Below are positions 1,878 through 58,400 of a stretch of DNA of 64,000 nt, one piece after another. The translations under genes were made by a program, and so were the position numbers. How positions within the stretch are numbered: position 1 is the first letter of the stretch; each line of letters starts with the position of its first letter. The stretch comes from Bispira polyomma (lineage: Eukaryota): positions 7,006,001-7,070,000 of the forward strand of contig OZ287751.1 in the NCBI GenBank assembly GCA_965649765.1, in the 5' to 3' direction. Below the pieces are notes generated by a model. The model was not told the origin of the DNA, searched no databases, and saw only the letters and a program-made list of their open reading frames with translations.

Positions 1878-2651
1878 AAAATCAGAAGTACTTTGTCGTC
1901 AATTTTGACTTACTTTAATAGGTCCCAGAGAGTGAACCATGGCTTTCATACATTCCGCAGACCCGAGGCTACCATTGCATATTCAACAGCAATGTGTCAC
2001 CAGAACACCCCATGGTTTATAGACCTCTTTAGTCATTTGCTATTAACTGGCAGCAACTTTCATTCTTTCCTTCACTGTTACATCGGCCATTTCCTCATTT
2101 CTTAGTTATGGGCATGGATAAAGAAATGTCATCAATCAAATGTCTGTTTTAATTTGTCTTTGACCTGCACAATTTTGAACCCGTTAACTAGCACCATTTG
2201 TGTTAAAATATGCTCTGTGTATATTCTTCCATTTGGCTGATGATATTCATATTTTGTATTTGCATAAATTAAATTTTCTAGAATGATCACAAAACGAAGA
2301 TGTTTGATTAAAAATAAAAACAATTTAAAACCGCTAATATTTTGTGACTTCCGTCTTGATGTTGAAATCTATAAACAAGTTTAGAAAATAGGAAATGTAT
2401 AGGTTTTTTTTTTTTTTTTTTTGACAATACAACAGTTTTATTTTAACCCTTAAACAAATAGAGAGAGAAAAGGCCATCAGCATTCGGAATCAAGTGCATC
2501 AATATGTGTGTGCGTGTGTGTATAGAACAACCCACTAACTAATTAGACTAATTGTTGTACCAATTTAAATAAATATTAAATATATCATCTATACTGGCCT
2601 CCCCCTGCATCAGTAAACTACCTGGCCTGATACAATACAACAAGGTGGAAT

Positions 2652-2814
2652 TGGTGGGCTGACGCCCGTGCGACAGCCCCCCTCAGTTCTGGTGGCAGGT
2701 CACTGGGGGGCCAATTAGGCCACCTGGGGTCACGGGGGCAAGTATAAAAGGGATTGCCGCCAACAGGCGCCATCATTAGTTAAAAACAGTTCATAGATAC
2801 AAGTGTTTTTACAA
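2652..2814 (+). repeat. Split direct repeat A1 (163 bp)
   Basis: Identical by eye to 8177-8339. Contains TATAAAAG at ~2743. Confidence 0.95.
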
Positions 2815-2884
2815 TTGGGGCTTTTACTACCCAGGGCTTTTACTACCCAGATATTGTTTTACATTTTTAATTGAATGTGTAGTC

Positions 2885-3880
2885 ATGCCTAAAGAATACC
2901 CGTGTAGTGTATGTTCTGGTCGGCACGAACGTCCAGTTGGGAAGAAATGTAAATTTAATCCGTTGGACAGCGTCGCTGATGAGGTGGCTGCCATTGATCC
3001 TGCTGTGCCTGCTGTTTCTGATTCCGTATCTAGTTTGATACTTCAACAACTGGTCGTGATGAATGAAAAGATGGACAGCATGGATCAACGAGTACAAGCT
3101 ACTGAGGCGGCGCTGTGTAAACCCAGCGCGCAGGCATGTAACACAGTTTTTAAATCTGTATCTAATGTCCCTAATGTTAGTGAACCAGTGGTTGAGGCCG
3201 TTGTGCCCTCCCTAGATTACCTGCGTTCAAATTCCGGCTTACAGAGTCAGGTAGACCAGCGCTTGCTGCAACTGCAACAACTCAATGATTTAACGGGAGG
3301 TAAACTAAAATCCCAAAGAGGTGGCGCGGAAGCTCCCGTTAAACGTCATGTTGATTGGCCACAAAATTTTGTCTTATCTGCTGTAAAAAAGGTTAGACCC
3401 ACTTATGATGACCTTACTTTGGTCCTGTTCGTCTCCGGGTTTGTTTGCTGTACGCAAGAGCAAAAAGAGTCCTCTGTCCGCGAGGCCATGTTGGAATATC
3501 TGGCATGTCTGATGGATGACGCCCATGATTTTTCGTGGGACGCCGCCAAAGCCGCTCACGCCATTTTGTTAACCAACATGGAAATGGACCGATTGAATTG
3601 GACGGATGTCGAAAAGGTCGACCGGGTAAGGCGCGCTCATGCACAGCGTCATGTAACGTCCTCAGCTAGTGGGTCTGGCCTTTCTAAAAGCAATGTTGGC
3701 AGTAAGGGTAAAACCTCGGTGAAAACAGCTGGAGTAAATTGTCGGTTCTTCCAAGAAGGAACGTGCAAATTTGATGCCAGCTATCGCACTTCTGGACAGT
3801 GGTTCAAACACTGCTGTGAGCGCTGTGATGGCACGCATCAAACCAAGTTGTGCTCCAAAAAGTCGGTGTCAAAAAACTAA
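2885..3880 (+). CDS. gag: Gag-like protein of YR retrotransposon (331 aa)
   Basis: ATG-initiated ORF with an N-terminal CxxCxxxHxxPVGxxC motif, a coiled-coil-like segment, and a C-terminal Cys/His cluster (CRFFQEGTC...HCCERCDGTHQTKLC). Lies directly upstream of RT. Confidence 0.85.
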   Translation: MPKEYPCSVCSGRHERPVGKKCKFNPLDSVADEVAAIDPAVPAVSDSVSSLILQQLVVMNEKMDSMDQRVQATEAALCKPSAQACNTVFKSVSNVPNVSEPVVEAVVPSLDYLRSNSGLQSQVDQRLLQLQQLNDLTGGKLKSQRGGAEAPVKRHVDWPQNFVLSAVKKVRPTYDDLTLVLFVSGFVCCTQEQKESSVREAMLEYLACLMDDAHDFSWDAAKAAHAILLTNMEMDRLNWTDVEKVDRVRRAHAQRHVTSSASGSGLSKSNVGSKGKTSVKTAGVNCRFFQEGTCKFDASYRTSGQWFKHCCERCDGTHQTKLCSKKSVSKN

Positions 3881-6411
3881 GGGGCCACTGCAGTATTGCA
3901 GTGGCTGCTAAGAAACTTGTACATAAAACCTGCTCTAGAGTTGTATATAATTCTACTTTTAGGGATTTTAAACTGTTTGATCATGTGTGTTGTAAATATA
4001 ATGTGTGTACTGGACCCCGAGGTAACAGGTCATACCGGGACGTGTTGAAACAGGGCCTTGTGGTTACTGATACCAAGATTTGTGGAAACCGGGAAATGGG
4101 AAAAGTTAATACTGTTTCGGTTAATAAAACTCCCCAAGGTAGCAAACTCGTGTTCCATAATTCATCATTGCACAAGGTGTCGGGAAGAAAGCATTCACCC
4201 GTGAAGGTGTTAAATACACCAGCTGACAGGCGACGTGAGAAAACAAATCACCAAAAGGTGTTAAGAAAAACACCTTTGGGTGGTGTGAAAACATCCTTGA
4301 ATAGGCGGGTCGGTAACAATGCAAACCGTGTGTTACAAAACAAACCAATTGTGTCCAAAACAATTGAACTAAGTGATGGCGAAGGGTGCCCTAAACTTCT
4401 GGTTTCTCCGAGTGTGAAAACAATTGGCGCGGGTACCACTCCAAGTAATGCTAACAATAGTGGGTTTCGCCTTCCCATTCATAACCGGTTTAGTTGTTTA
4501 GACATTCCTGGTATAGAGCTTCCTAACTCGAGTGACACGTTAGGTAAGGTCGATTTCACACCTAATCCACCACCTAACAAGAGATCTAACCCGTGTGATG
4601 ACAAGTATGTCCTGGACCTCTCAGGAGGCCTTGATAAAAGACAGCGCTTAAATGCAGCTAAAGATAATGTGACCTACAAGTTGTGGGATATACAGAATAG
4701 TGGAAAGTATGGGTTCATACCCACTAGTTCCTGGGGTACCCCAGTGATTGATTGTTCCAATAACCAATTGATCACAGACGTGTTTACACTACATAAGTCC
4801 CTTAAATTGGATGGGAGACCAAATTATAAGGGTTTACAAGTCCCCATACACACCCAACTGACGGTCGCTGCCTGGGAAAAGTACTTAGCGAATTATTGGG
4901 ATTGGGAACTCCCCTTACTGATAAAATTCAGATTTCCTCTTGACTGTAATGAAGAACACGAGTTCAAGTCTGACTTGAACAATCATGCTTCAGCCAATCA
5001 ATATCCTGAACATGTGAACCATTACCTGAAAGAAGAATGTTCTATGGGTGCTATGTATGGACCTTTCGTCCATCCCCCAATTGATGATGTGCACACATCC
5101 CCATTTATGACTAGAGACAAATCAAGCTCGGTTAACCGACGAGTCATAATCGATCTGAGTTGGCCCATCGGTCATTCGGTTAATGCAGCCGTGTCATCGA
5201 GTTCGTATCTGGACAAGGAATTTGTACTTACTTACCCTTCCATAGATGACATAACCCAACAAGTGTTGAAAAACGGTAGGGGCTCCTTGCTATTTAAAGC
5301 GGACATTAGTCGCGCATTCCGTCACGTGACCATAGACCCCAGAGACATCAATCGCCTGGGCTTATACTGGGACGGCTACTATGTCGACGGCTCGTTGCCC
5401 TTTGGCTACCGACACGGTTCAGTGATTTTTCAGAGAATTTCTGACGGTATAAGGTACATAATGGAAGGTGAAGGTCATCAAATCACCAACTATATAGACG
5501 ATCTATTATGTTCTTCTGTTCCCTCAAAAATCTATAAAATGTACCACCGACTGCAGGCCCTTTTGGCCGAGTTGGGTTTGACTCTCAGTAAAAAGAAGCT
5601 GGTTCCTCCAGCCACCCGGGTAACCTGCCTAGGCATAGTTATAGATACAGTTCGGTTCACTACATTGATACCAGAGGACAAACTAGCTCAGGTTCAAAAA
5701 ATATGTGGCAATTGGAGTGATAAAAAGCAGTGTACTAAGCGGGAGCTCCAATGTTTATTGGGTTCTTTGCTATATATTTCTAAATGCGTGAAGTACTCAC
5801 GATTTTTTCTGAATCGGATGTTGCAACTCCTCCGAAGCAATCACCACAAAAGAAGTATGAAAATTAACCCTGAGTTCAAAAAGGACCTTAACTGGTTCAT
5901 TGAGTTTCTCCATAAATACAATGGGGTGACATTTTTTCATCATGCCCCCATTACTGACATTGTAGAGTTGGATGCCTGCCTAACAGGCATGGGAGGAGTG
6001 TATGGCAAACAAGTATATTACCTTCCCATTCCTGCTGCTATGCAGAAACATAATATTGCTTCATTGGAGATGCTTAACATTCATGTGGCTTTAAAATTGT
6101 GGGGCAAATACTGGCAAGGACGTAGACTGTTAATTAAATGTGATAACCAGGCTGTTGTAAGTGTCCTTACTCATGGTAGAACTAGAGATAGCGAATTAGC
6201 CCTGTACTCGCGGAACATATTCATGCTGGCTAGCCAGCTCGATGTAGAGATACAGGTGGTTCATATTCTAGGAAATGACAATACCACTGCTGACCTCTTG
6301 TCTCGCTGGACAAATTCAGTTAAGGATAATGTTCTCTTACAGGAGCTGGTGGGCAATGTCCAATGGTGTGCCGTGACAGAGGACCACTTACTGCTTAATC
6401 ACCACATTTAG
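3850..6411 (+). CDS. pol: Reverse transcriptase / RNase H (DIRS/Ngaro-type pol)
   Basis: RT motifs RVIIDLS, FKADISRAFR, LPFG and YIDD. DIRS-type RNase H motifs ELDACLTGMGG, IASLEM, KCDNQAVV and ADLLSR. No ATG at the 5' end of the ORF. Confidence 0.95.
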   Translation: MLQKVGVKKLRGHCSIAVAAKKLVHKTCSRVVYNSTFRDFKLFDHVCCKYNVCTGPRGNRSYRDVLKQGLVVTDTKICGNREMGKVNTVSVNKTPQGSKLVFHNSSLHKVSGRKHSPVKVLNTPADRRREKTNHQKVLRKTPLGGVKTSLNRRVGNNANRVLQNKPIVSKTIELSDGEGCPKLLVSPSVKTIGAGTTPSNANNSGFRLPIHNRFSCLDIPGIELPNSSDTLGKVDFTPNPPPNKRSNPCDDKYVLDLSGGLDKRQRLNAAKDNVTYKLWDIQNSGKYGFIPTSSWGTPVIDCSNNQLITDVFTLHKSLKLDGRPNYKGLQVPIHTQLTVAAWEKYLANYWDWELPLLIKFRFPLDCNEEHEFKSDLNNHASANQYPEHVNHYLKEECSMGAMYGPFVHPPIDDVHTSPFMTRDKSSSVNRRVIIDLSWPIGHSVNAAVSSSSYLDKEFVLTYPSIDDITQQVLKNGRGSLLFKADISRAFRHVTIDPRDINRLGLYWDGYYVDGSLPFGYRHGSVIFQRISDGIRYIMEGEGHQITNYIDDLLCSSVPSKIYKMYHRLQALLAELGLTLSKKKLVPPATRVTCLGIVIDTVRFTTLIPEDKLAQVQKICGNWSDKKQCTKRELQCLLGSLLYISKCVKYSRFFLNRMLQLLRSNHHKRSMKINPEFKKDLNWFIEFLHKYNGVTFFHHAPITDIVELDACLTGMGGVYGKQVYYLPIPAAMQKHNIASLEMLNIHVALKLWGKYWQGRRLLIKCDNQAVVSVLTHGRTRDSELALYSRNIFMLASQLDVEIQVVHILGNDNTTADLLSRWTNSVKDNVLLQELVGNVQWCAVTEDHLLLNHHI
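3871..3905 (+). promoter_or_regulatory. Putative -1 programmed ribosomal frameshift signal
   Basis: A_AAA_AAC heptamer (3871-3877) in the gag frame immediately before the gag TAA, then a 6-nt spacer and a perfect hairpin GCCACTGCA-gtat-TGCAGTGGC (3884-3905). The RT ORF is in the -1 frame. Confidence 0.75.
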
Positions 6412-6414
6412 ATA

Positions 6415-7481
6415 TTGCTTTGTCTGGTTGCATGGTATTATGTTGATCAACCTTTACAAATGTTACTTTGTCTGCTCTGTGTTTGTGTTATAGCTAGAAC
6501 TCCCCTACAGCAGTTATTATATCTAAATGCAACGAAGAAGCTTCACCTGGCCTTCTGCAGGTCTACAGACAGATCTTATACTGCGATGTATAGGGTGTAC
6601 CAAGCTTATGCATCCTTCTCGGATCTGCCTTGTGACCAGGTGACAGCTATTGATCTTCTTGCTTTTTTAGAATTGTTACACTTTAACTCTGTAAAACCTG
6701 CCCATATGGCCAATTATTTATCTGCTATTAAAGCTAAGAGTATTGTATATAATGTGCCCATTCTTGCCTTCAGTGATCCTCGCTTGGCTTACTATCAAAA
6801 GTCTGTCCAATTAGCTGCCCCCTTAAATGTTCAGCTCAAAAAGATTATAGACATACCTCTTCTGACTAGTATTGTCAATGTCTCCAACACCACTTACATG
6901 GGTCCTATCTTTACAGCTGTGTATTTGGTCAGCTACTTTTCCTTCCTGAGGTTATCCAACTTAGTACCTCATTCCTGTCTTCAGTTTTCTGCTTTAAGAC
7001 ATCTATCAGGGGCTGATGTTATGTTTCACAGGGACAAAGCTGTCCTTTTGGTAAAATGGTCCAAAACAATGCAGATTAATAATCAGATTAGACTTATTAC
7101 TATCCCACGTTTGGTGGGTTCCCCTCTTTGCCCTGTGGGGTCACTGCAGGATTTATGGCTCTTACTCCGTCTGAACCTAATTCACCCTTATTTCAATTGA
7201 GAGACAAATCTCACTGGGTTCCGCTTACTGACACCCGTGTCCGCAGGCATTTCAAAACGATACTTGCCAGGCTCCAGTTGCAGGATTCTGGCCTCACACT
7301 GCACGCTTTCCGACGTTCGGGTGCCACTTTTGCCTTTAACCATAACGTCAGCATTCAGAACATCCAAAAACATGGCACTTGGACGTCGGATTGCGTGTGG
7401 AGGTATGTTACCGACTCAGTGGATGCGGGCCAGCAGGTATCGGACACATTTCGCCATCATCTTGCTACTTCTTCTTCCTAG
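6415..7481 (+). CDS. Tyrosine recombinase, split into two ORFs by a -1 frame change near 7150
   Basis: FLRLSNL (catalytic R), KWSKT and LCPV lie in ORF 6415-7200. SPLF, HAFRRSGAT (HxxR), HGTW and WRY (catalytic Y) lie in ORF 7128-7481. Confidence 0.9.
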
Positions 7482-7499
7482 CTTCCTACTTGCTGGGTT

Positions 7500-8176
7500 T
7501 GGGTGTTTCTACTCAAAATTTAGTCTATATTTCATATTCTAGATAATTATGTAACTTTTGCATTACATGTAGTCACATGCTAGTCATGTATAGTGTCATA
7601 TAGAATTTAAATTACTATTTCACTTGCTAGTCATTTCATGTTACAACTATAAAGTTAACTTCACAGAGTAGTATTTTATTTCCTAGTAATTGTATGCTAC
7701 AACTAGTAATTCAACTTCATGAAATAACTGTTCATTAAAAGGTAATAAAATCTGTAATTAACTGCAAAATTACAACTTAACTCTTCTTCTATACAATTTA
7801 AGGTCACCTCAATTTTTTTAATTCCCCTATGGGTTAAAATTTTAGTATACTAACCTGTATTTAAGGTGATCTTTAGCCCCCTTTTGTAGTCTAAATTATA
7901 AGATCATCTCCATTTATAAGGCCCCTACGGGCTTTGTAATTTCACTTATTTAACTGTGTTGGGGTGACCTTATCTTGTTCTTTGAAGTTAGATAAAATAT
8001 TATTATTACTTTCACTCAATTTAGTATGACTTAAAGTTACAAATTATCATGACCTTAAGTCACGTTGTATATAGTAGTTTAACATAGACTAACAATAAAA
8101 TATTTTACCGCATTCTGCTTACTTACTATCTTGCCTTCTTGACCTCTGACCCTTTGGCCTGTCACGCGGGGGAATG
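7500..8176 (+). repeat. Split direct repeat B1 (677 bp)
   Basis: Matches 8827-9504, with about 5 substitutions and one 1-bp indel seen by eye. AATAAA near 8094. Confidence 0.95.
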
Positions 8177-8339
8177 TGGTGGGCTGACGCCCGTGCGACA
8201 GCCCCCCTCAGTTCTGGTGGCAGGTCACTGGGGGGCCAATTAGGCCACCTGGGGTCACGGGGGCAAGTATAAAAGGGATTGCCGCCAACAGGCGCCATCA
8301 TTAGTTAAAAACAGTTCATAGATACAAGTGTTTTTACAA
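8177..8339 (+). repeat. Split direct repeat A2
   Basis: Copy of 2652-2814 abutting B1. Confidence 0.95.
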
Positions 8340-8826
8340 CCCACCCTGTACCCTCCCATTTAACAGTTTGTTATAGTTGTAGAATGTCGGTGAAATACAG
8401 TTCCACAGATCACAGCGACGTCTGGACCCTTATGGTGTAGCTAGCTGGTTGTGCTCCGGTGGTTCTGATCCTCAATCATTGTGTTAAGTAGGGGGCTATA
8501 TTACTTGGCCATGTAGGACATACAGGAAGAGCTAGAAAAGGATCTCTGTAAATAACCCGGTCTAATGGTTTACCACTGGATAAGGCCTAAGGTTAAGCGC
8601 GCATGGACCTGGATTTTAACAGAAACGAACGTTTATGTAAAGTGTCTTACTGCTATGCCAACTTTTAGCTAAGCACAGACTTTTGTTTTATGTAACGGAT
8701 TTTACCTTTCTACTTTTACCTTTACGTATGTCTCTGCAGACTAAGTTGTAGCATTCTGTTTTTACTTACCTGCGTGTAAGTCTTCTTTTAACTATCTTTT
8801 ACGTGTGTTTACAATTTTATATGTAA

Positions 8827-9504
8827 TGGGTGTTTCTACTCAAAATTTAGTCTATATTTCATATTCTAGATAATTATGTAACTTTTGCATTACATGTAGT
8901 CACATGCTAGTCATGTATAGTGTCATATAGAATTTAAATTACTATTTCACTTGCTAGTCATTTCATGTTACAACTATAAAGTTAACTTCACAGAGTAGTA
9001 TTTTATTTCCTAGTAATTGTATGCTACAACTAGTAATTCAACTTCATGAAATAACTGTTTCATTAAAAGGTAATAGAATCTGTAATTAACTGCAAAATTA
9101 CAACTTAACTCTTCTTCTATACAATTTAAGGTCACCTCAATTTCTTTAATTCCCCTATGGGTTAAAATTTTAGTATACTAACCTGTATTTAAGGTGATCT
9201 TTAGCCCCCTTTTGTAGTCTAAATTATAAGATCATCTCCATTTATAAGTCCCCTACGGGCTTTGTAATTTCACTTATTTAACTGTGTTGGGGTGACCTTA
9301 TCTTGTTCTTTGAAGTTAGGTAAAATATTATTATTACTTTCACTCAATTTAGTATAACTTAAAGTTACAAATTATCATGACCTTAAGTCACGTTGTATAT
9401 AGTAGTTTAACATAGACTAACAATAAAATATTTTACCGCATTCTGCTTACTTACTATCTTGCCTTCTTGACCTCTGACCCTTTGGCCTGTCACGCGGGGG
9501 AATG
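8827..9504 (+). repeat. Split direct repeat B2 (3' terminus of the element)
   Basis: Copy of 7500-8176, ending GTCACGCGGGGGAATG. Confidence 0.95.
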
Positions 9505-11464
9505 ATAACACATTGACCCCTACCTACACGAAATCTGAACCTTGTGTAAAATCAAATAAACCAAACATCGAGAAAGAATTTACTTTTACTGTGACACAAG
9601 AAATGCACATTTGCATGAACGTACTCCCTCCCCCCCCCCTCACACACACACACACACACACTCGCCCAGCGCCACCCTGCACCCGCAATTAGGTCAAGTG
9701 GGAAATTCTCAATACACGTGAGAGGAACGTCCATATTCTTTAAGATTCTTGTAATCCGTTCGTCAATAGGATGAAACCTTGCTATATCTGGTCTCAAATA
9801 GCTGTTTGTAAAAGTGTTTTGTAAAATCTCTTCCAATCTGTGTCCACTCAAGTTATTGAACAGTCATTAAAACTCCATTGCCTAGTATTTCTCAGTCTCT
9901 AAACAGAAACTCAAAGTTGTGTTTTGTTGCCTGTAATAAACATATGTGATATGTCTATTATTATAAAAATTAATTACAGAGATATATTAACTTAATCAGA
10001 ATCAGCAAAAGAATTGCTTCTCTTTCTCAGAAGGTATGGTATGTGTGTGGGTAAACTGTCAGTAGACCTGCTGAAGGAATGTGGTTTGTTAGTTTTGCCA
10101 TGCCAAAAAGGCCTTCACAAATTACCCTGTACGGCTCTGTTCCACCAGTAAACTCCCAATCATAATATATAAGATTTTAGTTGTTAAAAGAGATGTTCAG
10201 CCGAAAGATAAAAAACCTAATTTTAATAACAAAATAAACTAAAATCCAGGCAGAAGCAATGCAAGGCTGTGTTAATTTTGTCAAATCTAACATTGTGTTA
10301 CAGATAACAGGAGTTTTGCACACGTACACAAAACATACGAAAACCACAGGACCAATAGTTGTATACAAAGCAAATTGGATTGCAAAACTACACCAAAAAC
10401 AGAACTAAGAATTCTCCAGGATTTCTTAAATTTTATTATTATCAATGTCTACTTCTGAGTGTGTTGAATTAAATATATTTTATTTATTTTAGCGGCAAGT
10501 GTTAGGTTCACATTTTTTTTACAATTTGATACATTTTGATACATTTTGTTGCTGTTAGTACTAAGGCTTTAAGGCTTATTTGTCGCTTTACATTTACGAT
10601 ACAGTTTTACATTTATCCTGCTTGTAATAGACAAGAAACATGTATTTTACTCAATTTAAAATTATTGTTATATTGTAACAGTGCACTACCAATACGTGAT
10701 ACACATTATATACATAAGCAAATGATTAGTTAAGGAGGTATGGGGGATGGACAGAAAGTGAACAAGAAAGGTTTTAACAAGTGTTAAGGTAGACTTAATT
10801 TACAAAGTACTGAATAACTTGACCATGCAAGAGGTGACCCTATATTAAAGTTAACTAATCTACATCGATGTAAAGTTTATTAAATATTACTTGCTAATAA
10901 GTAGGTATGTATTTATAAAATTCCTAACATTATTAAAAAAACATATATCTCTCAACTCCTTTAAAGTGATAACTGAATCCACGTATACTAATATTAAGAA
11001 AAATAAGAAGAATTAATTCTTCTGTTTTTAAATCACTTTGTATTAATGTACTTTGAGTGAGAGAAATAAAATAAATAAATATACCCAGTATGTTATAACA
11101 TTTACAACTCCTCTTTTTTATACTTTAGGTCTGAATCAGACCACTCTCTAATTATATAATAAATAATGTCTTATATTATAAAATATATCTGAAACAAAAA
11201 GGTTATCATTAAATTTATATCAGTGGTCAGTTAATAAATACACATAGTTTGTTTACAAAAAAAGGAAGTTGTTTTGGTGTTGTTTACTGATTCTCTCTGA
11301 CCCATATGTCAGCAGTGAGTCAATTACCATTGTATGGCTGAGTACAAGTCTTCTAACAAGATGTTACTACTTTAATTAATTGTAGAATGTTAAGTAGGGA
11401 TTAGTTTACAGTGGACATAGAGAAAGAGCTGATGCATCAGAATATCAATGAGAAGAAAATTCAA

Positions 11465-31400: not shown

Positions 31401-34400
31401 AAATGCATTTCTGGTCAGAGAATCTTGATTTTGTAACAGCCACATTATATACGGCTGACAAAATAGAGGTTGATCAGGTATGAAAATTATCTGCTCATTT
31501 CAAACAAATACATAGTTGAATGTTTGTTTAGTATATGATGTTTGTGGTAAAATAATTATGTTAAACACTGTACTGTAAACACCGAACACATGAATCATTA
31601 ATTTCATTATTAATTACATCAAATTCAGTCATTAAACATAATAATAGCTTCCCTTTAAAATTAATTTATGTGACTATGTGTACAATCAAAGTAACCTAAT
31701 TGAACATACAACAGCTAGTATCATTATATTAAAGTCTGAGTAAATACAGCCCATGACACAATGCCTCATCTTGTCCAGAAATGCAACAATGCTATTTGTC
31801 TTTTTATGCCACAGAAATAGGGAAGTAAAAAAGAGAACTCCTTAGACAATGTCATATAGTGATATTTGCCAAAAAAACATCATGTTTCTTTTGTTTACTT
31901 TTCACAGGTGGAGATAGCTGCATATAATCCAGATATATATGACTTTAGTCAGCAATATTTTGGTCAGAATGGAACTTTTGCAACAATTTTAGAACTGTCT
32001 TTCCATCAAACAAGATCCAGTGGAGATATTCGCTTTGGTGGCTTATCTGTGCGAGCCTGTTTTGAACCATGTTAGTACAGATCAGTTTTATTTTTATTAG
32101 TACAAAATTAACTTAATCTGAATGTTTCACAATTTACTTTAGAGTTAATCTATTAGAATGTACATATGCCTTATTCTTAACACTCAAATTTATTGATTGT
32201 AAAATATATATTTTATATTTCCAGTTACTACAACACAATCCCCTACAACGAGTACAACGCCATCCCCTACAACAACAAGCACAACACTATCCCCTACAAC
32301 AACAAGTACAACGCCATCCCCTACAACAACAAGTACAACGCCATCCTCTACAACAACAAGTACAACACCATCCCCTACCACAACAAGCACAACACCATCC
32401 CCTACAACAGCGAGCACAACACCATCCCCTACAACAAGTACAACACCATCCCCCACAACAACAAGCACAACACCATCCCCCACAACACCATCCCCTACAA
32501 CAACAAGCACAACACCATCCCCTACAACAACAAGCACAACACCACCCCCTACTACTACAAGGACAGTAGAATGTACTTCTGGAGAGAAATCTATTGCCGT
32601 CAATGAAGAGAATATTGATCAATATTTTTATAACTTGAATTCTGAAACGAGAGACCTCATTCTCAAGACCGACATAATCATTCCTGAATTAGGTGAAAAC
32701 TCTACATTGATAATTGAACTGAAACAATGGACACTCAATGTTGGTGCAGAACTGCTGTCGTTTGAGTTAGGGATAGATGGTGCCAGAATGGTTGTTCTAC
32801 AGACTTACTACAGAAATAAAATTCAACCTGAAATTGAAATTGTAAGTATGGATACATAAAGCCAGTTCTCTCAATATCCCTGATATATATAAAAACTGGA
32901 GAGGTTTGTGAACAACTGATGAAAATTTTATTTTCCTAAAACTTACACTTTGAACAAATAGATGACTGTGAAAGTTCTTGATATTATTTCTATCTGATTT
33001 TGTTGTGCTGATATCATGCAAGATACAATATGACATCTTTATCTGCATTTATAATTCTATTTATGCCATATAACCTTACTAATTGAAATCACCATGTGCA
33101 TTGCAGCTTGACAAGTCAAGTGAATTAGTTGGTTTAGTTTGGAATCTACAGAAAGACATACAGATAAATCTCTATGAAGCTGCATATAAAATAGAACTTA
33201 AAGTTTTTCCAGAAGATACTTCGGCAATCATGGAAATCGAAAGCTTTCAAGTTGAGGCCTGCCTGCCAAAAGGTATTTAAAATACAACAAATCCTATATC
33301 ATTTACTACGTAAAATGCAATGTTGTACAACTAGCAAACATATTTCTGGTGATTTATAGTAATACAAAACATGATATTCTTAAAACTGCTTCAATCTGCA
33401 ATTGATATTTACTTTAAATAATGCAAGTTGTTTTTGACTAATGTACACAAGTTACTTTTGTTATTGACAAGGTACTTTTTGCATTAAAGAATTTTACTCT
33501 ATTGTATACAACGATTACAATGCTCCATAGAACTTATGATGTGAAGTAGGTGAAAGCATACACTTGTGAAATTGATAATTGCAGAAGTCTAGCTGTCTTG
33601 TATAATTAGCCATCAATGGTAGAAATGTTCGAGAGTATTAAGTATATAAAGATCTATTATTATTAATTCAGCATTTTATTAAAAGTATTTGCCAAATAGA
33701 TACATTGAACTGATTTATTTGAAAATCAATTAATTGTCACATTTTAAGCGAATGCAATAAAACCTCCAACAGTGAACATCTCAGAACGGTGAACGGTTCT
33801 GGGTCTCGTTTTGACACTGGTGAATAGTACAAAACCTCTGAGGAGTAAAGACCTCTTTATAGTGGACAATTTGGCTGGGTCCCATGAGCATGCACTATAT
33901 GAACGATTTACTGTATTAAGAGAGTGTAGCTGGTGATCACTGTATGTTTTTCACTGAGTTGTGACATTCTCCCTCTTTTCAGTAACAACTACCACCTCAG
34001 CTCCAACAACCAGTACCACACCAGTCTCCACATTTTCTACCACAACAGAGTTTGAAACTACACCCTTTGTTTCAACTATTATGACCACAAGTAGGTTTAT
34101 CCTATGTATAATATAGATTTTTTAACACGTGTCATATCACGACAGGCAGTTCACTGGCAGAGGAAATCAGGGCTGAGTAGGTGGTCAATGTTTTTTAGTT
34201 CAACCGGAAAACTGAGACGGTTGAACTGGTTCTAGTGTCTAAGCTGGTGCTGTATGAACGGAATGATTAACAGAAATATTTCTGATTTCTATATTTCCTT
34301 TTATCAAACTTTGGGAGATGTTTTATGTCTAAATAATTATCCTGTATCACAATATTTGATGCCAAATCAACTCTTCAATATCTATATATAATTCTTGACT

Positions 34401-37400: not shown

Positions 37401-40400
37401 CTGGGGGTACGAGTTGTGGCTTTCACATTTCAAAGTGAGAATATCCAGTCTCTGAATGTGACCATGTTCAGTGGACCTTCAAAAATATTTTCCCACAAGG
37501 TATGTAGGAACTTTTATTGAAGTAGTCCTTTTTAAAGCTGTGTGTTAGTTTACAAACTAGTCATGGTGTCATTTACATGTAGTGTTTCTTACTAATCTTT
37601 TCATTATTTTTTGTTTCATTCATGCATGCACTAACTAATATTATAATCTTCTAATCATCTCCACTAGGAGTTTGTACTGGATGCTGACTGGACTAGTATT
37701 GAAATTCCTCTTGGAGGAGGTGTAACAGAAGTTACAGACATCAAATTACATCATTTTGAGTCATATAACAGCACAGATAAAATATCCTTGAGGAGTTTGT
37801 CTGTAGTCACTTGTCATGTACCAGGTATATACACACATATAGCAATTCAAACAGAAATTCGCTAGAATAAACATATTTATCTACTACAAAGGAAGATTTA
37901 GCTAAAGATTAATACAATTATTAATTTAATTGTTTTGCTGTTTGCAAGTTATTAATAAAATTGTTTAAATATATTCTAGTATATAAAAATTGTACTGATA
38001 AAACACTAATACATGTTAATAGTATTGTATAGAATTTCTACTTTAATAATTGATTGACTTATTTTGCTTCAGTCACAACACCATCCCCTACAACAAGTAC
38101 AACACCATCCCCTACAACAACAAGCACAACACCATCCCCTACCACAACAAGTACAACACCATCCCCTACATCAACGAGTACAACACCATCCCCTACAACA
38201 ACAAAAGGTAACAGTTATTGCCCTGTCTTAATTGAATAAATTACCCCATAAATTTTACTAACTGCAGATGAATATGCTTTATTTTTCAGTGCTGCAGTGT
38301 ATTTTATGTATCTTACTCAGCATGCAGAGGGGAAGTACTTATATTATAGATATGTTAAATAATGTATAGTATAGCAATCTTATTCAACACACTTTTTGCT
38401 CAGTATGACTTCAGAAATTATATTAAAGGCACAGATAAAGGATATAATTTAAATTATTTAATGTTACTACTTCCTAATTTTGATTTTCCACTAATCAAAT
38501 TATTGTTATGATCACTCCAGTTACTACAACCACTCAGAAGGCTGTTTGTTCTGATGGAAGTAATTACACAAACCTAGGAACAGCAGACCAGGACCTGTTC
38601 ATGACACTTTTGATTGATGAAGTCAATAGTCCTGAAGTACTAAATCTCCTTGATCATAGTGTTCCTGTAATTCTACCTGTAAATGATGTATCTATGTTGG
38701 CATTATTTCTAAATGATGATGAATCATCAGAGCTGATGGAATTCTCGTTTACACTGAATAATGCTCCAGGCCTTAGTTACACTGTCAGCTTCTCCAATAA
38801 CACACAGCAAACTTACAATGTGAGTAAATAATTGATGAACTGTTCTAAATTAGTAATTTGAAGCCATCTCAAAAACATAACAAGAACAAAACACTTAAAG
38901 CTTGCGTATTGCGAAAAATTTGAAAATATTTAACTTTGAGCCTAAAAGAACAATGGGCTGCTCTTAACTTATATCAAATATAATATATATTAATTACATG
39001 GCTATTCCAATGTAAAGCTTTCCTTAATTGTTTAATGTATACCAGATTGTTTCAATGGTGTCTTCCTAAACTACTTTCCATAAACACTAATCAAATTAAC
39101 TATATACATATTTAAGCTTGAAAACCCCAACAACCCTGGTATTTCATGGTTCCATACTGAGGAGCTTCCATTATTTGATGATGTCAGAGTTACTAGACTT
39201 TACTTACATATAACAGCAACTGATTTGCCAGTTGAAATCACTGGGTTAACAGTGGCTGCTTGTATTTTTGAAGGCAAGTATAAGCACTCCTAACAAGCTC
39301 TATAGTGTAACCTAATAGAAATAGATATCATAAAAGTACAAAAAACTCCATTAAGCAATAGCTTATTTATTGCTATGCTTAGTTTGTATCATACAGACTT
39401 TCCATCTGTAAATTAAAATTTAAACTAAATTTATTTATTAAATTTTGCATCTCTTAATTAGAGATGCAAGAACATTATTACACTGGTACATGTCAGTTAA
39501 TATTTCATGGTAACTAAAAGTTTCTAAACATTTAAAGAATCAAGCTTACGACGTACTAAAAAGACAGGAACATTTAAAACAATATTCCAGTAAAATATTG
39601 TAAATGTACACGACTGCATTATACCAGCATGGCACAGGATCACCGATAACCAGAATATCAAATATACAATACTTCTGGGCCCTTGTTGCAGTTTAAAACC
39701 ATAACTTTCCTATTTCTGCACAGATTCTGCAATAATTCTGTCACCATTGGTTCTAAAATTATATGCTACAAATTTTGATACCAAAAAAAATATGAAGTTT
39801 TATTTGCTTTCCATTTGGGCAGTACGTCGCTGTGTAAATTTGCCACCATGCCCACAATTCCTACTAATGTACGTATTCTATGCATGTGAACACCTCTAAA
39901 ATAGATATAAGTAGCCATTATTTTATGTACTAGTGATATGTACTTGTATTCTTACTAGCATGCCACACCAGGGACTGTATTCACAAAAGGTGTTAGTCTT
40001 AACATACTCTAAAGCTTACCATGTATGTCTAAAATATTTAAGACTGCCTAATGTTAGTTTTAGTTTTAAGTGCATGTTCAACACATAGCAAATATCTTTT
40101 CTTATCGTCACTGAGACTAAGATCAAAATCTTAACCTTATCGGCCAAAATCAAAGACCAAAATCTTCAGACTAAGTTAAGACTAAGATCTTTTGTAAGTA
40201 CGATCTGTGTTTATATTTAAACAATGCATCAGCTGGAATAATTGTATTTAAATGAAAAATATAGTGTACATTTCTCTAAAATATATTTACGGGCCGCGGT
40301 GGCCTAGTGGTTAGCAAGCATTGTGCTTCACAATCACTGGTCTCTCACCTCTGGGCGGCGTGATTTCGAATCCCGTATGCCTATGTAGAAAAGGTGGTAG

Positions 40401-43400: not shown

Positions 43401-46400
43401 ATTCCTCACAGTTCAATAAGAAATAAATTTTCTGCAAAATCACGAACTGAAATTGACAACATGGTTAATTAAGTTTTAAAATAAGTATGTTCCTTATATC
43501 GACCTTCTCAGTCAGTTTGAACAACCTGAGTCAAGAGATACTTTCTAATGAACATGATTCAGTAAATCTTGAATTGTTTTCCATTGATGTTTTCTAGGAA
43601 CGATAACAAGCACCAGTACTTCGATAAGCACAACACCACCCCCTACAACAACAAGCACAACACCATCCCCTACAACAACAAGCACAACACCATCCCCTAC
43701 AACAATAAGTACAACACCGTCCCCTACTACTACTGAAAGGACATGTATATCTGGACCAGAAGTTTTCATAGATGAAGATAATTATGATGCTTTTTTTACT
43801 ATCTCAAATGATGATACCAGAAGCCTCATCCTCTACCATGATCAAATATTTGCATCATTAGATAACATTTATGAATTGGAAATCCGATTACAAGATTGGG
43901 CACAATTTCATGATGCAGAACTGATGTATTTTATGCTAGTGGTAATTAATGCTAGAAAGGTCGTACTACAGACTTATTACAAAGATCATGTCCTGCCTGA
44001 AACAATTCAGGTAAGTATCCTAAAATCTCTTAAATTTGTATGTCAGATACAGAAGATAAATTTTATGTCATTGGTAAATGCTAAGTGCTGGAAAATATTC
44101 ATTCAAAATCATTTAAAAAGCTGGATTATATTGTAAATATTTTTAAAACATACTAATCCGGTAATTTAATTCATGTAGTACTACATAGAAAATGTACTAA
44201 AAAAGAGCTAATAATAAATTTCCCAAACTGTTATCACTATGTTGTGCAATGTGTTTATTATCCTTTCATTTGGTTCTACTATCTTCAATGTTCAACTTCC
44301 TTTGGTTACAAAACAACTCAAGTAGCAATCAAATATGTTATTACATTTATCTTGAGCTCAGTAAATTGGTCTTGGCATAACATCTTGGTGAAACTTCGGC
44401 TTGTAGACTGTGTTAGGTTGTTGCTTGCACCACGGTTCAGTGGAAACCAGAGTTTCATAGACTTTATAACATGGTTCTTGAACAGTACACTCAGTGAGTT
44501 GTTTAGTGGGGTGTTTATGGTTGTACAGGTCACTATACGGAATGAATATAGAAAATTGCTATGTGCATTGCAGTTTGTTAATCCCATGCCAATGGTTAAT
44601 GAAACTTGGCGTCTAGACTATGATATAGAGAGAAATTTTGCTGACCAAGGTGCAGTTGCAATTATCCTTGAAGTTTTTCCATTTGACTCACAAACCGGTG
44701 TGACAGCCATGAAAATTGATATCCTTGAGGTTGAGGCATGTTTGCCAGAAGGTAATTAATTAATATACATATAGCCTATTATTTTGAATAGAAAAAATGT
44801 GTAAAAAAAAGTTAATATTTTATGTTCTATCAATATATTTCAAAGCAAATAATATAAAATCCCAGCCACCAAAAGTATGTATATAACTATTAGCAGCATA
44901 GATACGGTTCATCAAAGGTAGATTGTACAATAAAGTACACTTGACAATTCTGCTCAAACTATCAATGATATAACATTCACAAGTTGACCAATGCTAAAGC
45001 TTTGATACCAGCTTTTTGATACCAGTTTTGTTTCTTTTCAGTGACAACTGCCCCCCCTGCTGTTACAAGCAAGACACCAGCTCCACCTCATCCAGGAACA
45101 ACCACATCCACACAGCCACCAACTACAACTACAGGTATATATATATATATAGCATGTAATACCAATGCATAAATATGAAAACAAAGTTGGATGGACTTCA
45201 TTCAAAGTAAACATTGCTGTAGTCTCTGGACTAGATCACAGGAACCTTTTTTTTTCGGAAAATTTTGTCTGTAATAATTTTCATATTGGCAAATATAGGT
45301 ATAAATATATAATGGCTGCCCTTAACTTGACCATGGTTTTGGAATTATTTTTATATGCTAGTTTTGATTTACGGTGCAAACCAGATTTTAGAGTTTGCTT
45401 CCACTTTGGCCTGGTGAGGAGGCCACCCTATTTGTATGCCTTTGTAGACGTGAGTCGACTTACCGTTGTATACGATCATTGAAACGTAGGTATTGTTGAA
45501 TTGGACGAAGTAAGTCCTCTGTTTCATAGTAATTTAGGGAATCCTCTGTCTGGTCTGTGTGCATATTTAGGGGGGGAACCACTATGCTCTTGTCCGATGT
45601 CATCCATCAGCCTGTCCCAATCTAAGTCAGAAGGGGATCAGCATCTTCGTGTGGGTTATAGCCGGTGCTGTCGGGTGAGCTATGTTGCTCACGAGAGGAG
45701 ACAGTAGGGAAAGTTACAGTCCAACCCTTATGCTGTTGGTCTTTCCTAATGACATTGACTTGGTTCTTTAAGCTTGGTCAATTTTTGAATTTTCTGGATT
45801 GTCTTTACTTGTCTCTGTTTTTAACGCATTCATAGCATAAGTAGTTTGTGATTTACTAGTCTGTCATGTGCGTGGTCTTGTGATAGTGGGATTTGTGGAT
45901 CTCTATGAGCCATGACACCATAAGCCATGACACAAGGGTGGCATTTTCTCCCAAGAATCGAAACTGATGATTTACTAATAGTATTAATATCCCAGTGACA
46001 ATCACGACCGACCGGACATTTATGATGATGCTGACACTTTCTGCAGTAAGTCATTGCTGACGCCATTTAAATCACACATGTGACACATGGAAGATGTAAG
46101 GTTTTGCAATAGTCGCTTGTGAAGTTATAAAATAGTGAAACTAAGAAGCATGGAAATAAGAAGTTGATTTAAAATAAACCAAAATATGATACAATATCGT
46201 CAAGTTTTAAAAGCAAGCATAATTGGTTGCATAAAGAGAGCTTCTTTTGGTTCACTCAGACGTTGAACAGGGGTTTAAGTAATCAAAATGGGAGGGGGGG
46301 GGGGAGAAGGGGAGGTGACAAATTTAACTTTCTCTGCACTGTCAAGGCAAGCCTTTGAACTACAGACAGGAATTAATTAGTGTCACACTCTCGGACGGAC

Positions 46401-52400: not shown

Positions 52401-55400
52401 CTTTGCAGCTGAAATTTTTTAATCACAGGGGAAAGTTTGATTGTAATATGTATTTTTGAAAGAATACTACTTACCAATTTCTAACATGCAAATTGTCCTC
52501 CTTCCTTTGCCTATAGAGTGGTGTCAAAATTTAAACAGAATATGATTGGTTGGGGACTAGGTCAGATAGACTAGGTGAGATACTCTGCTGAGTCACATTT
52601 TTGGTCAAGGTTGATAGTAGTTGTTTTTTTAACCTGTTGTTAACTTTTGATTCAAGCTTGTGCAAATGTTGAGTACACCTTACCTAATGTAATCATATAG
52701 AAGCATTAAGTAGGGGTTATATATTTGTCATTAACTGGTCTATATCCTCACAATGCGTGCATTTTGTTTTATTTCCAGTGGATACCACCCTCCTCAAACC
52801 AATACAAGTGTATATTACATATTGACATGCTAGAAGCTGAGGTGTATGAAGTAGTATTTGTCCTGGATGTGCCTGACATCAGTGAGGATGTTTCTGTGAG
52901 AGATGTCAACATTACTGGATGCATTTCTGAAGGTGTATTTTTATACAAAGTTATAATGTTTATGTTTTTATTTCTATAGCGCCACAATCGATGACCAGGC
53001 ATCCTCTGTGGCGCATATCCTAATAAGTGTGCAAAAGGATAGTCTGGTAGACAGAAAAAGGTTCGTGATTAGAGTTCAGTCGTGACCAGCAGATGAAAGC
53101 TATGATGAGAAAGCGAGCTGATACAGATGTGTTTTGACATTTTTTCTGAAAGACTTTTATCATTAGGATAGTCTTTAACTTTTCAATCTTGTGGTGTATT
53201 TTGTGTGTGCATATATGACAACTAATATCACAGTTCAGATACTGCTCTTTAGGGTACGAATTGTTTGTGTGGATCATAATTAGATTTATTATCATGGTCT
53301 TCCATGGCGAGGTAGTTAGGGAGTTGGTCTGGTGATCGGATCTTCCCTAGTTCACCTCGCACTTTTGCACCTATGTTTGTGGGTGGATAAACATCATTGG
53401 GAAAGTTGTGAACTCACCATTGCCCACTATTGATGACCCAGACTATGTTATATGACCTCTTTTTGGGGGAATAAGTCCCTTAGAGGATGGCACATTAATC
53501 AAGCACTATATAAATGCTCAATACTCATAATATTGCAGATTTATTTGTGTACTAATATTTCAATTCTATTTGTTTTTTTTACATTGAAGAAACCACTACA
53601 GAAACTACTTCTACTGTAGTACCAACAACAACTACCAGTGAGTTGAATTGTGTTTGCACAAATACATCAAGATACTTAAGATACAATAGAAACTCTATTT
53701 GATGAACAATTTCGGAGAGCAAAATTCTGTTAGCATAATAGAAGGTTCATAAAATAGGAGAGGCTTTTTATAATATGAACAATGGGAAATATGAATTTGG
53801 GAGAGTGAACATGTTCATAAAATCAAGTATATGGATAAAAAAAATAGAAGTTCTGATAATAGAGTTTCTGGTTCACTAGCACAACTTTAATACTTGTATT
53901 TTATAAATACTTGTACTTTAGAAGGGAACATTTCATGTGGGTATTACTGTCACCACTCTTTTTTTTCTATTGGGCTTCAATTTGTGTTGATTTTTTTAGA
54001 AGTAAAAATTATCAAGACTGACTATATCACATTACAAATAGTAGAACTAGTGATTATTTATATTATACTGAATACACATGCATGTCCTACAGAATGGCAT
54101 TATAGAATCTGTAGAACGAAAGGGAAAATGTAAATAGTATTTAGATATCTTCAGTCACACGGTAAAGAAAGCATATATTTTGATATCCACTTTCATTAGC
54201 TTTAACTGTTAAATACAACTAAGTGATGTAATGGTAACACACTTCCCTCTAACCTCATCAGCCGTGTGTTCGAATATTGGCCATGACTTATAAATGGTAA
54301 AGTTGGCAGAAGACTTGCTAAAGGCTAGCTGTTGGCAGAGCAGAGCACCTTGTGACAAACTACAATGTTCTGATTTTCTCCACCAGTGAACTTGATGATA
54401 TGAAACAAAATGTGTTGTAAGCAATGTAATGAATTGAATGTGATCTACACCATGTACATCTGTAATCCTGCATACTTTCTTTAATTAAACTGCATTTGAC
54501 ATGCGTTTTTTTTATTTAAAAACATTTCTACACATGAGATGAACTTTGTGTTTTAGGTGAAAGTCCATGTGTTTACTTGACTGGAAATCTGCTGGACAGC
54601 AATGTGTTGGGTCAGAGCTTTAGTCTCCGTGCATCCAGTAACGATGAAAAGACTGCCAAGGCATTGAAGGGCAGTGGGTCAGCGTGGAAAGCTTATAAAT
54701 CAGATGTAACAGACGGTGTGGTGACCTATACCTTTGAACTCGACTCTCCTGGTCAGTTGATGTACTTCCAGGCCACAGCCTACGGTGTGGAATCGATGAA
54801 ATTCAAAGTAAAACTTGCCGGAACTGCAGAATTCAAGCTATTTAGAAGTAGCATATTCTCAGATGGGGTGAGTTAAATACTGTTTCCATACACCCGTACA
54901 CGGCATCCGTAAACCTGTCCATCAAAGAGGCATGATGTTTCTATAACTGTGTATATATAGGTTTTAAGGCATAACTTTCTTTTTTATGGTCTGCTGTTTA
55001 AAATTCATTTACCTTTTTGTTCAGTGTCTCAGATCTTGACACCAAATAACCAAACTTATGTTACACAGTAGACCGAATAATCTGTCCCAATTTAGCAAGA
55101 TTCCTTGCTGATATTTTGACGACTGAATCACGAATAAGGCTTCGGCTACCATAAGCCACGCATTGTAAATCAAAATCAGCATATATAGAGATAGAATCTG
55201 GTTAAAATAAATATATACCCTCATTCCTTATATATGATGCCTACGTGGTACATATCAATTAATATAATATAAAAACTAAACCACAAACATTGGCACAACT
55301 CTGTCGGCCATGTTACGTCAGGCTAAATTTACAACGTTTTGCTTATGGTAGCCGCTCTGTTGCCAATCGGCTATACCTCAGTTTAAAATGCTGTCATCAG

Positions 55401-58400
55401 CAGCAGAATACTTGGTTACTCTAGTTACACAGCAGTACATATTTCTTGAAACTTCCACTGTTTGTATGGATAAAATTTCCCTTCTGGAGGTGTGTTTTGC
55501 GGAACTGTATGACTTACACAGATGTATATGGGAACACCCTAAAGGAAAATAGAACTGTTGATGTGTACATGTGATGCATGTATGAATAGCTTTTACGCCT
55601 GTATGAAAACCGGGCATTAGACTGCATCTTTTGTCTCGTGGTATTCACTACAAATGTTAAAATTTATTAAAACACATATCGAAGAAAATTGCACCCTCAT
55701 TCGCAATCATGGTATCTACTGACAAGGTTTCGATAATCTGAATTATAAATTCATTTTTACAATACTTGTTATTTAACAACATAGAAATAATATGAACTGT
55801 TTTACTTATATTTGGTTTGTTTATCCCACTAATTTGGCTTAGACTTCTTCAATGTATGGTGGATTTATAATATAATACCCAATAAAAGTATATTTATATC
55901 AGCCCAAATTCAGGAATACTTATAAACTAGATAAAAACACAAGATGTGGATTGAAATGGCCAGTTTTTTCAACTGACAAAAACTGTATATATTAAACCAA
56001 GCATACAATATCTTATCATTATTTGGAGATTTATGCAAAATTTTATTGATACATATACATGTATCAAACCAATAAAAACATGGACTTATTGGTAATTTCA
56101 TTTGTGCATATACAGCATTAAGGCTTCAGGAAAGACAGTAGACTCAATAAAGATAAGTATACATACACAGTTATAGTCAGGATCTCTGGAAAAGTTGTGT
56201 AGGTTTATATTAAAATATCTATAATTAGATATCTTCGGTGTTTGCATTACGTAAAATAATGTTCCATTTCTAGGTGAATCTTAAACAAAATGACAGTTAC
56301 AGTGACGTGTTGGAAATACCCAGAGTGCAGCTCAATACTGGAGATATAGTAACAGCAGTCAAGATTATAATGGAACCTATCAACCCAGAACAAGTTGATG
56401 TTTCATTGGACAATCTCTCTGTATATGCATGCTTCAATGGTATGCTTGACACTATTTGATATTTCAGTGTTACACTATACAAATAAACTACAAATTTTGT
56501 GTTATTGAATAATATATTTATATACACATGTGGAGAATGTTATAAACATATTTTAAGGCCTCACAATGTTCCAATAATTTTCAGCCTTCTTATAATTTCC
56601 CCACATTTTTGTCAAAACTTCCTTTTTATTTTTCTGAAAATATGTTGCCGTATAGCAAAAGTGAGTAATTGGGCGATATATAGCTAAAGTAAGGTGTCTT
56701 GTAAATCTCAGCGTACAATTTCAAAACAATGACTGCCTATATGTACACATATTCTAGCTATACATTCTGGCTATTTTGTTGAGATACTTCAGTAATTAGT
56801 GCTAAGGTTTTTCAGTTATTATGACCAAGCCTGTGTCACATGATAACTACTTCTACAAGTAATGCAGTGCAATGTTGCTTTTTATTACTACCCAAATTCC
56901 AATATGTTTCCACCATTGAGGTTGCCTGTATTTCTCCAATATTTTATGACATTCCAATTGGCCCCTTTCAATCCCTATAAGTTGCTGGCAAGCAGTCGAC
57001 CCCCTGAAAATATTCGCAATAGGATTTTGTTAGTAGTACAGCCAAAATGTTTTGTTAAAAAAATTATACGTGAGGCCATTATTGTATGCCAGAGGTAGTC
57101 TGTGGTGTGTGTTTTAGTGACTCCAACTATCTGTAATTTATTATTAAAACATTTTCTTCAGCTCCCAGTTCAGATAGTTTTCTCTAAAAAACAAACAGAA
57201 TTTTAGGCACTAAGTGGACAAAACACATCTATATCAGCTCGCTTTCCCACTTTAACATTCATCTGCTGGTCATGACTGAACTCTGATCACGAACCTTTTT
57301 CCGTCTACCGGACTATCCTCTTGCACACTGATTAGCATATGCACCACAGAGGATGCCTGGTCATATAAAAGTAAAAAAATTTACATTAACTTTTTCTTAC
57401 TTTTCAGGAAGTCTGCCCAGCACATCAACTGCCACAAGTAGGTCATCTTACCACAATTGTGCTATTACATAATAACATCATTCAATACAATGTTTCCAAA
57501 TGCTGTTTTTCAAAGGGGATGGGGTTTCTTCTGTAAAAGCCTATGTGTGACCCTACAAAAATACACAAAACCAAAATTGTTTGAATATCATGCAGAATTA
57601 ATTCTTAGTAATGGTTTGAAATACTTAAATGCAGATGTGTAATGCTTTAGACCTTAGATTATCCTATCTGGCCACAATTGTATTACTAACTGTATTTTAT
57701 TTTAAAAAAAAGATATTAAACTGCTCAAAGTGACATGAAACCCCAATAAACTTGTGATACCCAAGCATAAATGATTTTATTGATAGTAAAACCTTGCATA
57801 GAGTTGTGTAACTCAACTGGAACTCCTATTAGTAGACTCAAACCTTTGATTCCTTGAATAAATACATACCATCAATGATCAAGAAAATATAGACTGTAAA
57901 ATTTGTTTTCATTAAATAAGTAAATCTAAATGAACAATTATGGAATGGGAATTATGAATCTGTTTAAGTGATACTTTATCAAATAAGAAAGTGGAACTGT
58001 TTACAGTTATCCTTAAACAGAACTCTGTTATGTTAGAGTAATTAGCATTTGTACTTGGCCTTATTTTTAGAGATTGTTTGACAAATATTGGTTTTCCATT
58101 TTAGCACCTTCCTATCCATGTGATGGAGATTTACTAGAATTGGACTATAACACTCCCAACAAAGACGAAAAATTTGAAACCCGAGTAGTTGACGAGGCAG
58201 GGAGAGATGGGTCTTTCTTACGTGGCTCTAATGCACAATACACTGCAAACTCAGATCTACTTACGGTGAAAATGGATTTAGTTGGCGACAACATTTTTAG
58301 TATGGCTGGATATCGTTTTGTTGTTATAGGTGTCCAAAATATAACAATTGTGATAACCACTCCAGATAACGTGAGCACCGCCCTCACACCAGACCAGGTT

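Follow-up and report, generated by a model that had tools for sequence, protein, structure and literature searches.

The stretch analysed here (the window) comprises 64,000 nucleotides of forward-strand DNA from Bispira polyomma (contig OZ287751.1 of assembly GCA_965649765.1, positions 7,006,001–7,070,000) and carries a 6.9-kb tyrosine-recombinase (YR) retrotransposon, whose junction between gag and pol holds a candidate −1 ribosomal frameshift signal, the subject of this work. The gene order is gag, pol (reverse transcriptase, RT, followed by RNase H), YR, and all features of the element given below lie on the forward strand. The first open reading frame (ORF; 2885–3880, 331 amino acids, ATG at 2885, TAA at 3878–3880, last residues SKN) is gag-like, with an N-terminal Cys/His motif, a conserved core and Cys/His knuckles at the C-terminus. 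The pol frame (3829–6411) is in −1 relative to gag and begins with a low-complexity linker of about 250 codons, after which come RT and RNase H. The recombinase gene (6494–7481) is spread over two ORFs (6412–7200 and 7092–7481); this copy carries a disruptive frameshift somewhere in the interval from about 7140 to 7200, and its Phage_integrase match (E 9e-4) is below the curated cut-off, while in relatives YR occupies open frames of 330–360 codons.

The 3′ end of gag reads TCA AAA AAC TAA, which places the slippery heptamer A_AAA_AAC (3871–3877) in the gag phase. A 6-nt spacer follows (TAAGGG, 3878–3883, its first codon being the gag stop) and then a perfect 9-bp hairpin with a 4-nt loop (3884–3905; arms GCCACTGCA at 3884–3892 and TGCAGTGGC at 3897–3905, loop GTAT), which folding and covariation mark as the predicted stimulator. 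The folding energy is −21.7 kcal/mol (z −4.8) and none of 200 shuffles of 3878–3910 was equally stable. The combination of the heptamer, 5–9 nt and a perfect 9-bp hairpin has no second instance on either strand of the window, and the chance expectation of such a combination at any place is about 0.1 per 64-kb strand (40 Markov simulations). All the components of a canonical −1 signal are therefore present, that is, an in-phase heptamer, a 5–9 nt spacer, a predicted 3′ structure and a coding −1 ORF, and the predicted Gag–Pol fusion is 1175 amino acids long. The original prediction, made from the letters of the window alone, had given the same in-phase heptamer, spacer and hairpin, an RT ORF in the exact −1 frame overlapping gag and a fusion of about 1170 residues, and on re-checking the sequence each of these agreed. 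Its statement that pol has no nearby ATG holds locally, but further on there is an in-frame ATG at 4096, the first in pol, which lies 75 codons downstream and still 5′ of the RT domain.

The lineage is abundant in its own genome (at least 375 DNA candidates and at least 8042 gag candidates). Copies were sampled as the 30 closest, 40 places from a gag search (39 at about 72–78% identity and one close copy) and 110 loci from four divergent Pol homologue queries. With five duplicates removed there were 175 distinct places. In 160 of them the last Gag Cys/His knuckle, a landmark independent of the heptamer, provided an anchor; the remaining 15 were excluded from this set, and in one of them (L093) an in-phase signal is visible by eye. 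Clusters were defined by 85% gag nucleotide identity (n = 33). Both heptamer and stem are kept in 30/30 of the closest copies. RT identity to the window copy goes down to 48% among the sampled copies, and A_AAA_AAC is in phase and reached by an open gag frame in 141/160 anchored copies and 29/33 clusters, the heptamer being present in some phase in 154/160.

Protein constraint on Lys–Asn is not sufficient to account for this, because the pair is written A_AAA_AAC in 141 of 147 cases at the junction compared with 5 of 40 (8% expected) in the rest of gag. Nor is the heptamer explained by the stop codon, since among the 29 cluster representatives both the identity of the gag stop (TAG 13, TAA 8, TGA 8) and its position (0, 1 or 6–7 codons 3′ of the heptamer) vary. 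Mean folding energy of the 45 nt 3′ of the site is −15.8 kcal/mol, against −6.1 kcal/mol at 341 other A-runs in the same loci, and in this comparison, which uses the first member of each cluster, 26/29 clusters fall below the 5th percentile of the control. The first stack of at least five pairs starts 4–9 nt 3′ of the heptamer in 27/29 (5–9 nt in 25 and 4 nt in two more). Among 27 short-hairpin variants 94.7% of cells pair, as opposed to 15–49% in slid controls, and compensatory changes on both sides occur at three pairs, giving a covariation score reached by 0/500 shuffles. Changes at the outer and the inner pair of the stem fall in separate clades, the core CACUGC/GCAGUG is invariant in sequence, and in three other clades the hairpin is replaced by other, partly bulged stems roughly as far from the heptamer. 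Heptamer and stem core both show avoidance of synonymous alternatives, and the columns flanking the signal are identical in only about 9–17 of 29. The loop is of 4 nt and variable, and no pseudoknot is indicated because conservation is at background beyond the 3′ arm, although the folding used models no pseudoknots. The two comparisons proposed with the original prediction, namely conservation across copies and related families and covariation within the stem, thus came out in its favour, the heptamer persisting in most copies and clusters and the hairpin being either kept or replaced.

The −1 frame closes a median of 6 codons 5′ of the heptamer and is open for at least 100 codons 3′ of it in 27/29 clusters (at least 250 in 19), while the +1 frame is open for at least 100 codons in 1/29. 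Pol appeared to lie in +1 in cluster F12, but this was rejected, being explained by a poly-C run of 7–10 bases that varies between copies. Soon after the shift site the window encodes a conserved short protein module (3937–4050), R-x-x-Y-N-S and then a motif like SY-x-D-V, 5′ of the ATG at 4096. Across clusters the motifs of the module sit 17–87 codons 3′ of the shift site, with variation in their synonymous codons. The pattern R-x-x-Y-N-S, which was defined after the sequences had been inspected, occurs in the −1 frame in 20/29 clusters and in the other two frames in 0/29 and 1/29, and it precedes the first in-frame ATG in 13 of the 20. Often NW-x-x-DW stands between R-x-x-Y-N-S and SY-x-D/E-V-V-K, and an unalignable linker of about 200 codons follows. 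The window module has no Pfam match, and ESM Atlas gave no lead for 3877–5100.

Homologues from other assemblies were compared as proteins. There were 102 for Gag, 48 of them without a recognisable knuckle, and in those with a knuckle the C-terminus is at or shortly past K–N in 45/54 (47 by script, two being taken out by hand). Nine of 120 Pol homologues start with KK-L/R and then HC or GC, and four of these read KKL-x-x-HC-x-NAV, which is what the heptamer and hairpin give when translated. R-x-x-Y-N-S is found within the first 100 residues of 50/89 long Pol homologues and within the next 100 residues of one. Among 12 metagenome loci three (L181, L182 and L185, 42–44% RT identity) show the full junction, and in 3/3 gag and pol share one frame, divided by a single TGA (L181, 1562–1564; L182, 313–315; L185, 1824–1826). 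A fourth locus, L184, has an in-frame TGA (729–731) behind a short ORF1 that lacks the Gag core. The next base is C in L181, L182 and L184, and G in L185, where a long predicted stem follows. The remaining loci were either without a gag–pol junction (L183 and L186–L188) or too distant or unrelated (L189–L192, 24–26% identity). The TGA-type loci are all from a single sample and, under midpoint rooting, group in a clade separate from the frameshifting lineage. A genetic code with a reassigned stop was considered and rejected, as the pol frames of 700–1100 codons contain no other TGA. From their sequences these distant relatives therefore likely reach pol by UGA stop-codon readthrough instead of frameshifting, and a Gag–Pol fusion is implied there as well.

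Expression of the recombinase seems to follow a different route. A predicted phase-1 splice donor, GAG|GTAAAC (3297–3305, cut between 3299 and 3300), lies in gag at the Gly codon before KSQRGG, and a predicted phase-1 acceptor consisting of a pyrimidine-rich tract and TAG (6470–6493) lies directly 5′ of the YR homology. The donor AG|GTA is present in 17/18 G000 elements that have the KSQRGG motif; over all gag Gly codons, the motif-site donors included, it occurs at 30/376. A phase-1 YAG at −2 or +1 of the projected YR start is found in 21/23 elements, where the background is 1.8% per codon. This pattern covers the window element, L193–L212, L181 and L185. Since donor and acceptor are conserved and in phase 1, and since at the RT–YR junction neither the relative frame nor the spacing from the pol stop is constant, YR is likely translated from a spliced RNA as a fusion to the first 138 residues of Gag. 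In three runs, whose even cover looks like DNA and so speaks neither for nor against splicing, no GT–AG joint of donor to acceptor was present among 15 of 47 joints.

The element is bounded by split direct repeats in the order A1…B1A2B2. A1 (2652–2814) forms the 5′ end and makes a 163-nt identical pair with A2 (8177–8339); B1 (7500–8176) is 99% identical to B2 (8827–9504), which lies about 490 nt 3′ of A2 and forms the 3′ end. The A2–B2 interval (8340–8826), about 490 nt here and 550–940 nt in relatives, contains no ORF of more than 43 amino acids on the forward strand. GGAAT(G) recurs at the left flank (2644–2651), at the B1/A2 junction (8168–8176) and at the right end (9497–9505), which suggests that the element inserted through recombination into a matching host core. 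A and B repeat pairs are both present in 6/21 G000 stretches, the others having partial pairs or none. Ngaro elements are described as having gag, RT/RNase H and YR genes, A1…B1A2B2 repeats and no methyltransferase (PMC6681497, PMC9210276, PMC7192593), and the window element is alike in gene order, split repeats and the missing methyltransferase: its YR gene is 3′ of RT/RNase H on the same strand, it has no terminal inverted repeats, and no Pfam match to a methyltransferase domain was found behind RNase H in the window pol or in 29 aligned members. PAT-like and DIRS1-like elements carry a methyltransferase, the latter with inverted terminal repeats in addition (PMC7192593, PMC3266345), and both identities were rejected, the first for want of the methyltransferase and the second for want of either feature. 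By structural definition the window element is thus Ngaro-like, the tree of its relatives holding no named Ngaro reference. Rfam gave no meaningful match over 2500–9600 of the window, and IMG/VR scans returned no relative of the element.

That the element encodes no visible protease, another point of the original prediction, stands at the level of sequence. There is no D[ST]G in the window gag or pol, any such motif is common to at most 2 of 121 aligned rows, and neither the window pol nor the 29 aligned members have a Pfam protease match; sequence matches of pol in the PDB are to RTs, apart from a weak one (E 0.011) located in the low-complexity linker. The predicted −1 shift from gag to pol is like that of animal long terminal repeat (LTR) retrotransposons, but these encode a protease and a DDE integrase. 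Both enzymes are lacking in YR elements (PMC3783388). A 2003 survey of animal retroelements placed pol in −1 in 28/51, many with classical heptamers (via PMC5009743). A_AAA_AAC ranks with the most shift-prone heptamers, and the usual spacer is 5–9 nt (PMC5009743). At the gag–pro junctions of human T-cell leukaemia viruses HTLV-1 and HTLV-2 the heptamer is AAAAAAC, the spacer is 6–7 nt and the first stem is 8–9 bp (PMC3835772); heptamer, spacer and stem length are therefore alike, as is a shift, predicted here, from the gag end into an enzyme frame, but in this element that frame is the one for RT–RNase H and no protease was found, the stop of gag adjoins the heptamer, the loop is of 4 nt and the host is a YR retrotransposon rather than a virus. 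Mouse mammary tumour virus (MMTV) gag–pro has the same heptamer and a 7-nt spacer (PMC3835772), but its stimulator is a compact pseudoknot in which an adenosine is wedged (PMC5009743), whereas the window has a simple hairpin with a variable 4-nt loop and no conserved second stem, again judged by folding that has no pseudoknot model. The comparison with MMTV and HTLV made in the original prediction is accordingly apt for HTLV in spacing and stem length, but not for the MMTV pseudoknot. The in-frame TGA of L181, L182 and L185 recalls gamma- and epsilonretroviruses, in which an in-frame gag–pol stop is read through (PMC3835772), as gag and pol form one frame with a single stop in each; unlike those viruses, the relatives have UGA with C next in two loci and a long predicted stem in the third, and the likeness concerns these relatives only and not the window element.

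The original prediction had also known of no such signal in DIRS or Ngaro elements. We likewise found no gag–pol signal described for them: the available text of PMC5009743 mentions neither DIRS nor Ngaro, a slippery site goes unmentioned in what was available of PMC3783388, PMC6681497, PMC8547959, PMC3266345, PMC9210276 and PMC13003380 (older Ngaro literature may mention a gag–pol overlap), and the accessible parts of PMC7192593, PMC4157794 and two preprints give no frameshift or splice signal for YR elements. It should be noted, however, that programmed frameshifting was thought probable for the Ngaro YR ORF by Poulter and Butler in 2015 (quoted in PMC13003380), which qualifies the novelty. 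That published guess places the shift at RT–YR, whereas in the window lineage the shift signal is at gag–pol and RT–YR has a predicted splice acceptor, so that the recombinase is likely spliced where frameshifting had been supposed. As a mechanism −1 frameshifting is familiar from viruses and from LTR elements; the apparent novelty lies in documenting its signal for a lineage of YR retrotransposons, along with the likely readthrough of a sister clade and the likely splicing of the recombinase.

With the sequences, their phase, conservation and covariation and the open frames as observed, we consider it very probable that the conserved junction signal of this large Ngaro-like lineage serves programmed −1 ribosomal frameshifting. 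Gag would be the product of most ribosomes on the full-length RNA, which would terminate at its stop codon. The hairpin would make a smaller fraction pause while tRNA-Lys and tRNA-Asn occupy AAA AAC; these ribosomes would move back by one base and go on to translate the short conserved module, the long linker, RT and RNase H, and the 1175-residue Gag–Pol would probably not be cleaved by any protease of the element. The recombinase would be made separately, from an RNA spliced from the mid-gag donor to the acceptor 5′ of YR. The slippage in this scheme and its efficiency, the fusion protein, the absence of cleavage and the splice are all deduced from sequence.

Several observations weigh against frameshifting as set out above. 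Among RNA runs none was listed that contains the element. No usable site is present in 19/160 copies (five premature stops, eight extra-A copies, one deletion, four AAT and one ATC), and in one cluster such copies are 8/14. Within the tree of their cluster the premature-stop copies are dispersed, a pattern consistent with repeated decay or with noise of the assembly at base runs. In the eight extra-A copies (8/160; L049, L061 and L069, and also L048, L060, L082, L100 and L110) an A added before or in the heptamer places pol in or out of frame. L049, L061 and L069 have an altered stretch in common that brings gag into frame with pol, for which a small fused subfamily mobilised in trans, a duplication and assembly noise are possible explanations. 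The DNA-level evidence is all from one genome, and the loci are best matches and hence skewed towards intact ones. Because some singleton clusters hardly differ in RT, there are fewer independent families than the 33 clusters. Of the nine stem pairs six are nearly invariant, so the covariation rests on the other three, and the commonest stem change (pair 15–34) represents one clade of the tree. Lastly, in-frame ATGs lie 5′ of RT in 14/14 intact representatives in which the RT landmark was found.

These ATGs (1–6 per intact representative, that at 4096 in the window) would allow pol to be translated by reinitiation or internal initiation past the gag stop, with the hairpin serving that or, for example, packaging, and the invariant core CACUGC/GCAGUG could then reflect protein binding. 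The position of the first ATG nevertheless varies between codons 3 and 247 past the heptamer, the conserved motif precedes it in most clusters that have the motif, and an in-phase heptamer is left unexplained, so that we allow this explanation only a small chance. About the same slight likelihood attaches to translation of pol from a spliced RNA, in which the mid-gag donor would be joined to an acceptor in the linker. Gag does have a conserved phase-1 donor and the window linker has two phase-1 YAG candidates, but in 17 intact linkers no phase-1 acceptor recurs at an aligned place and six have none at all, against 21/23 for the YR acceptor; the linker is moreover open from the heptamer onward and begins with the conserved motif, and neither the phase of the heptamer nor the fixed spacing is explained. 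Pol from a spliced or an internally initiated RNA had been named in the original prediction as an outcome contrary to it, and no conserved acceptor or start codon for pol was found.

Transcriptional slippage, whereby RNA polymerase would add one A in the A6 run, could draw on the eight copies with an extra A, variants that arise somewhere if not in assembly. It needs no fixed codon phase, no final C and no hairpin 4–9 nt downstream, however, and an A6 run is short for slippage by polymerase II, which makes this explanation highly improbable. The signal might, finally, have no recoding role and be inherited sequence or a product of protein constraint (Gag ending in Lys–Asn, Pol starting KK..HC..AV). 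Ancestry is common to all copies, but the low identity of the flanking columns, the avoidance of synonymous codons at heptamer and stem core, and the substitution of stems of other sequence for the hairpin in other clades leave this explanation with almost no probability. Frameshifting at A_AAA_AAC thus remains the reading that we prefer.

Elsewhere in the window there are two inverted-repeat pairs, one MITE-like (like a miniature inverted-repeat transposable element; 996–1040 and 1659–1703) and one like a 4.4-kb DNA transposon (52991–53136 and 57219–57364), and ends similar to inverted-repeat pairs recur at 58583–58630 and 61429–61458. A 27-nt unit strongly skewed in C and A forms arrays (32203–32614, 38048–38231, 43579–43762 and 62440–64000) that are possibly repetitive coding exons of a host gene.

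Apart from the one guess at the recombinase junction, expression of the downstream genes of DIRS-order elements is undescribed in the literature searched, and the present lineage gives a precise, testable scheme in which gag–pol relies on −1 frameshifting, or on readthrough in a sister clade, and the recombinase on splicing. For annotation it means that such pol ORFs are given false start codons, and for the study of frameshifting the lineage provides dozens of naturally varied hairpin stimulators on a single heptamer. On balance we favour, with moderate confidence, the broader view that Ngaro-type elements follow a retrovirus-like programme without a protease, making Gag and an uncleaved Gag–Pol by a −1 shift or, in the sister clade, by UGA readthrough, a spliced fusion of the 138 N-terminal Gag residues to YR, and a new module at the start of pol, with the stem core perhaps read by a trans-acting factor. 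A controlled ratio of Gag to Gag–Pol would be implied, as in particle-forming retroelements, though no protease was found, and the recoding repertoire of retroviruses would be extended to a separate order of retroelements.

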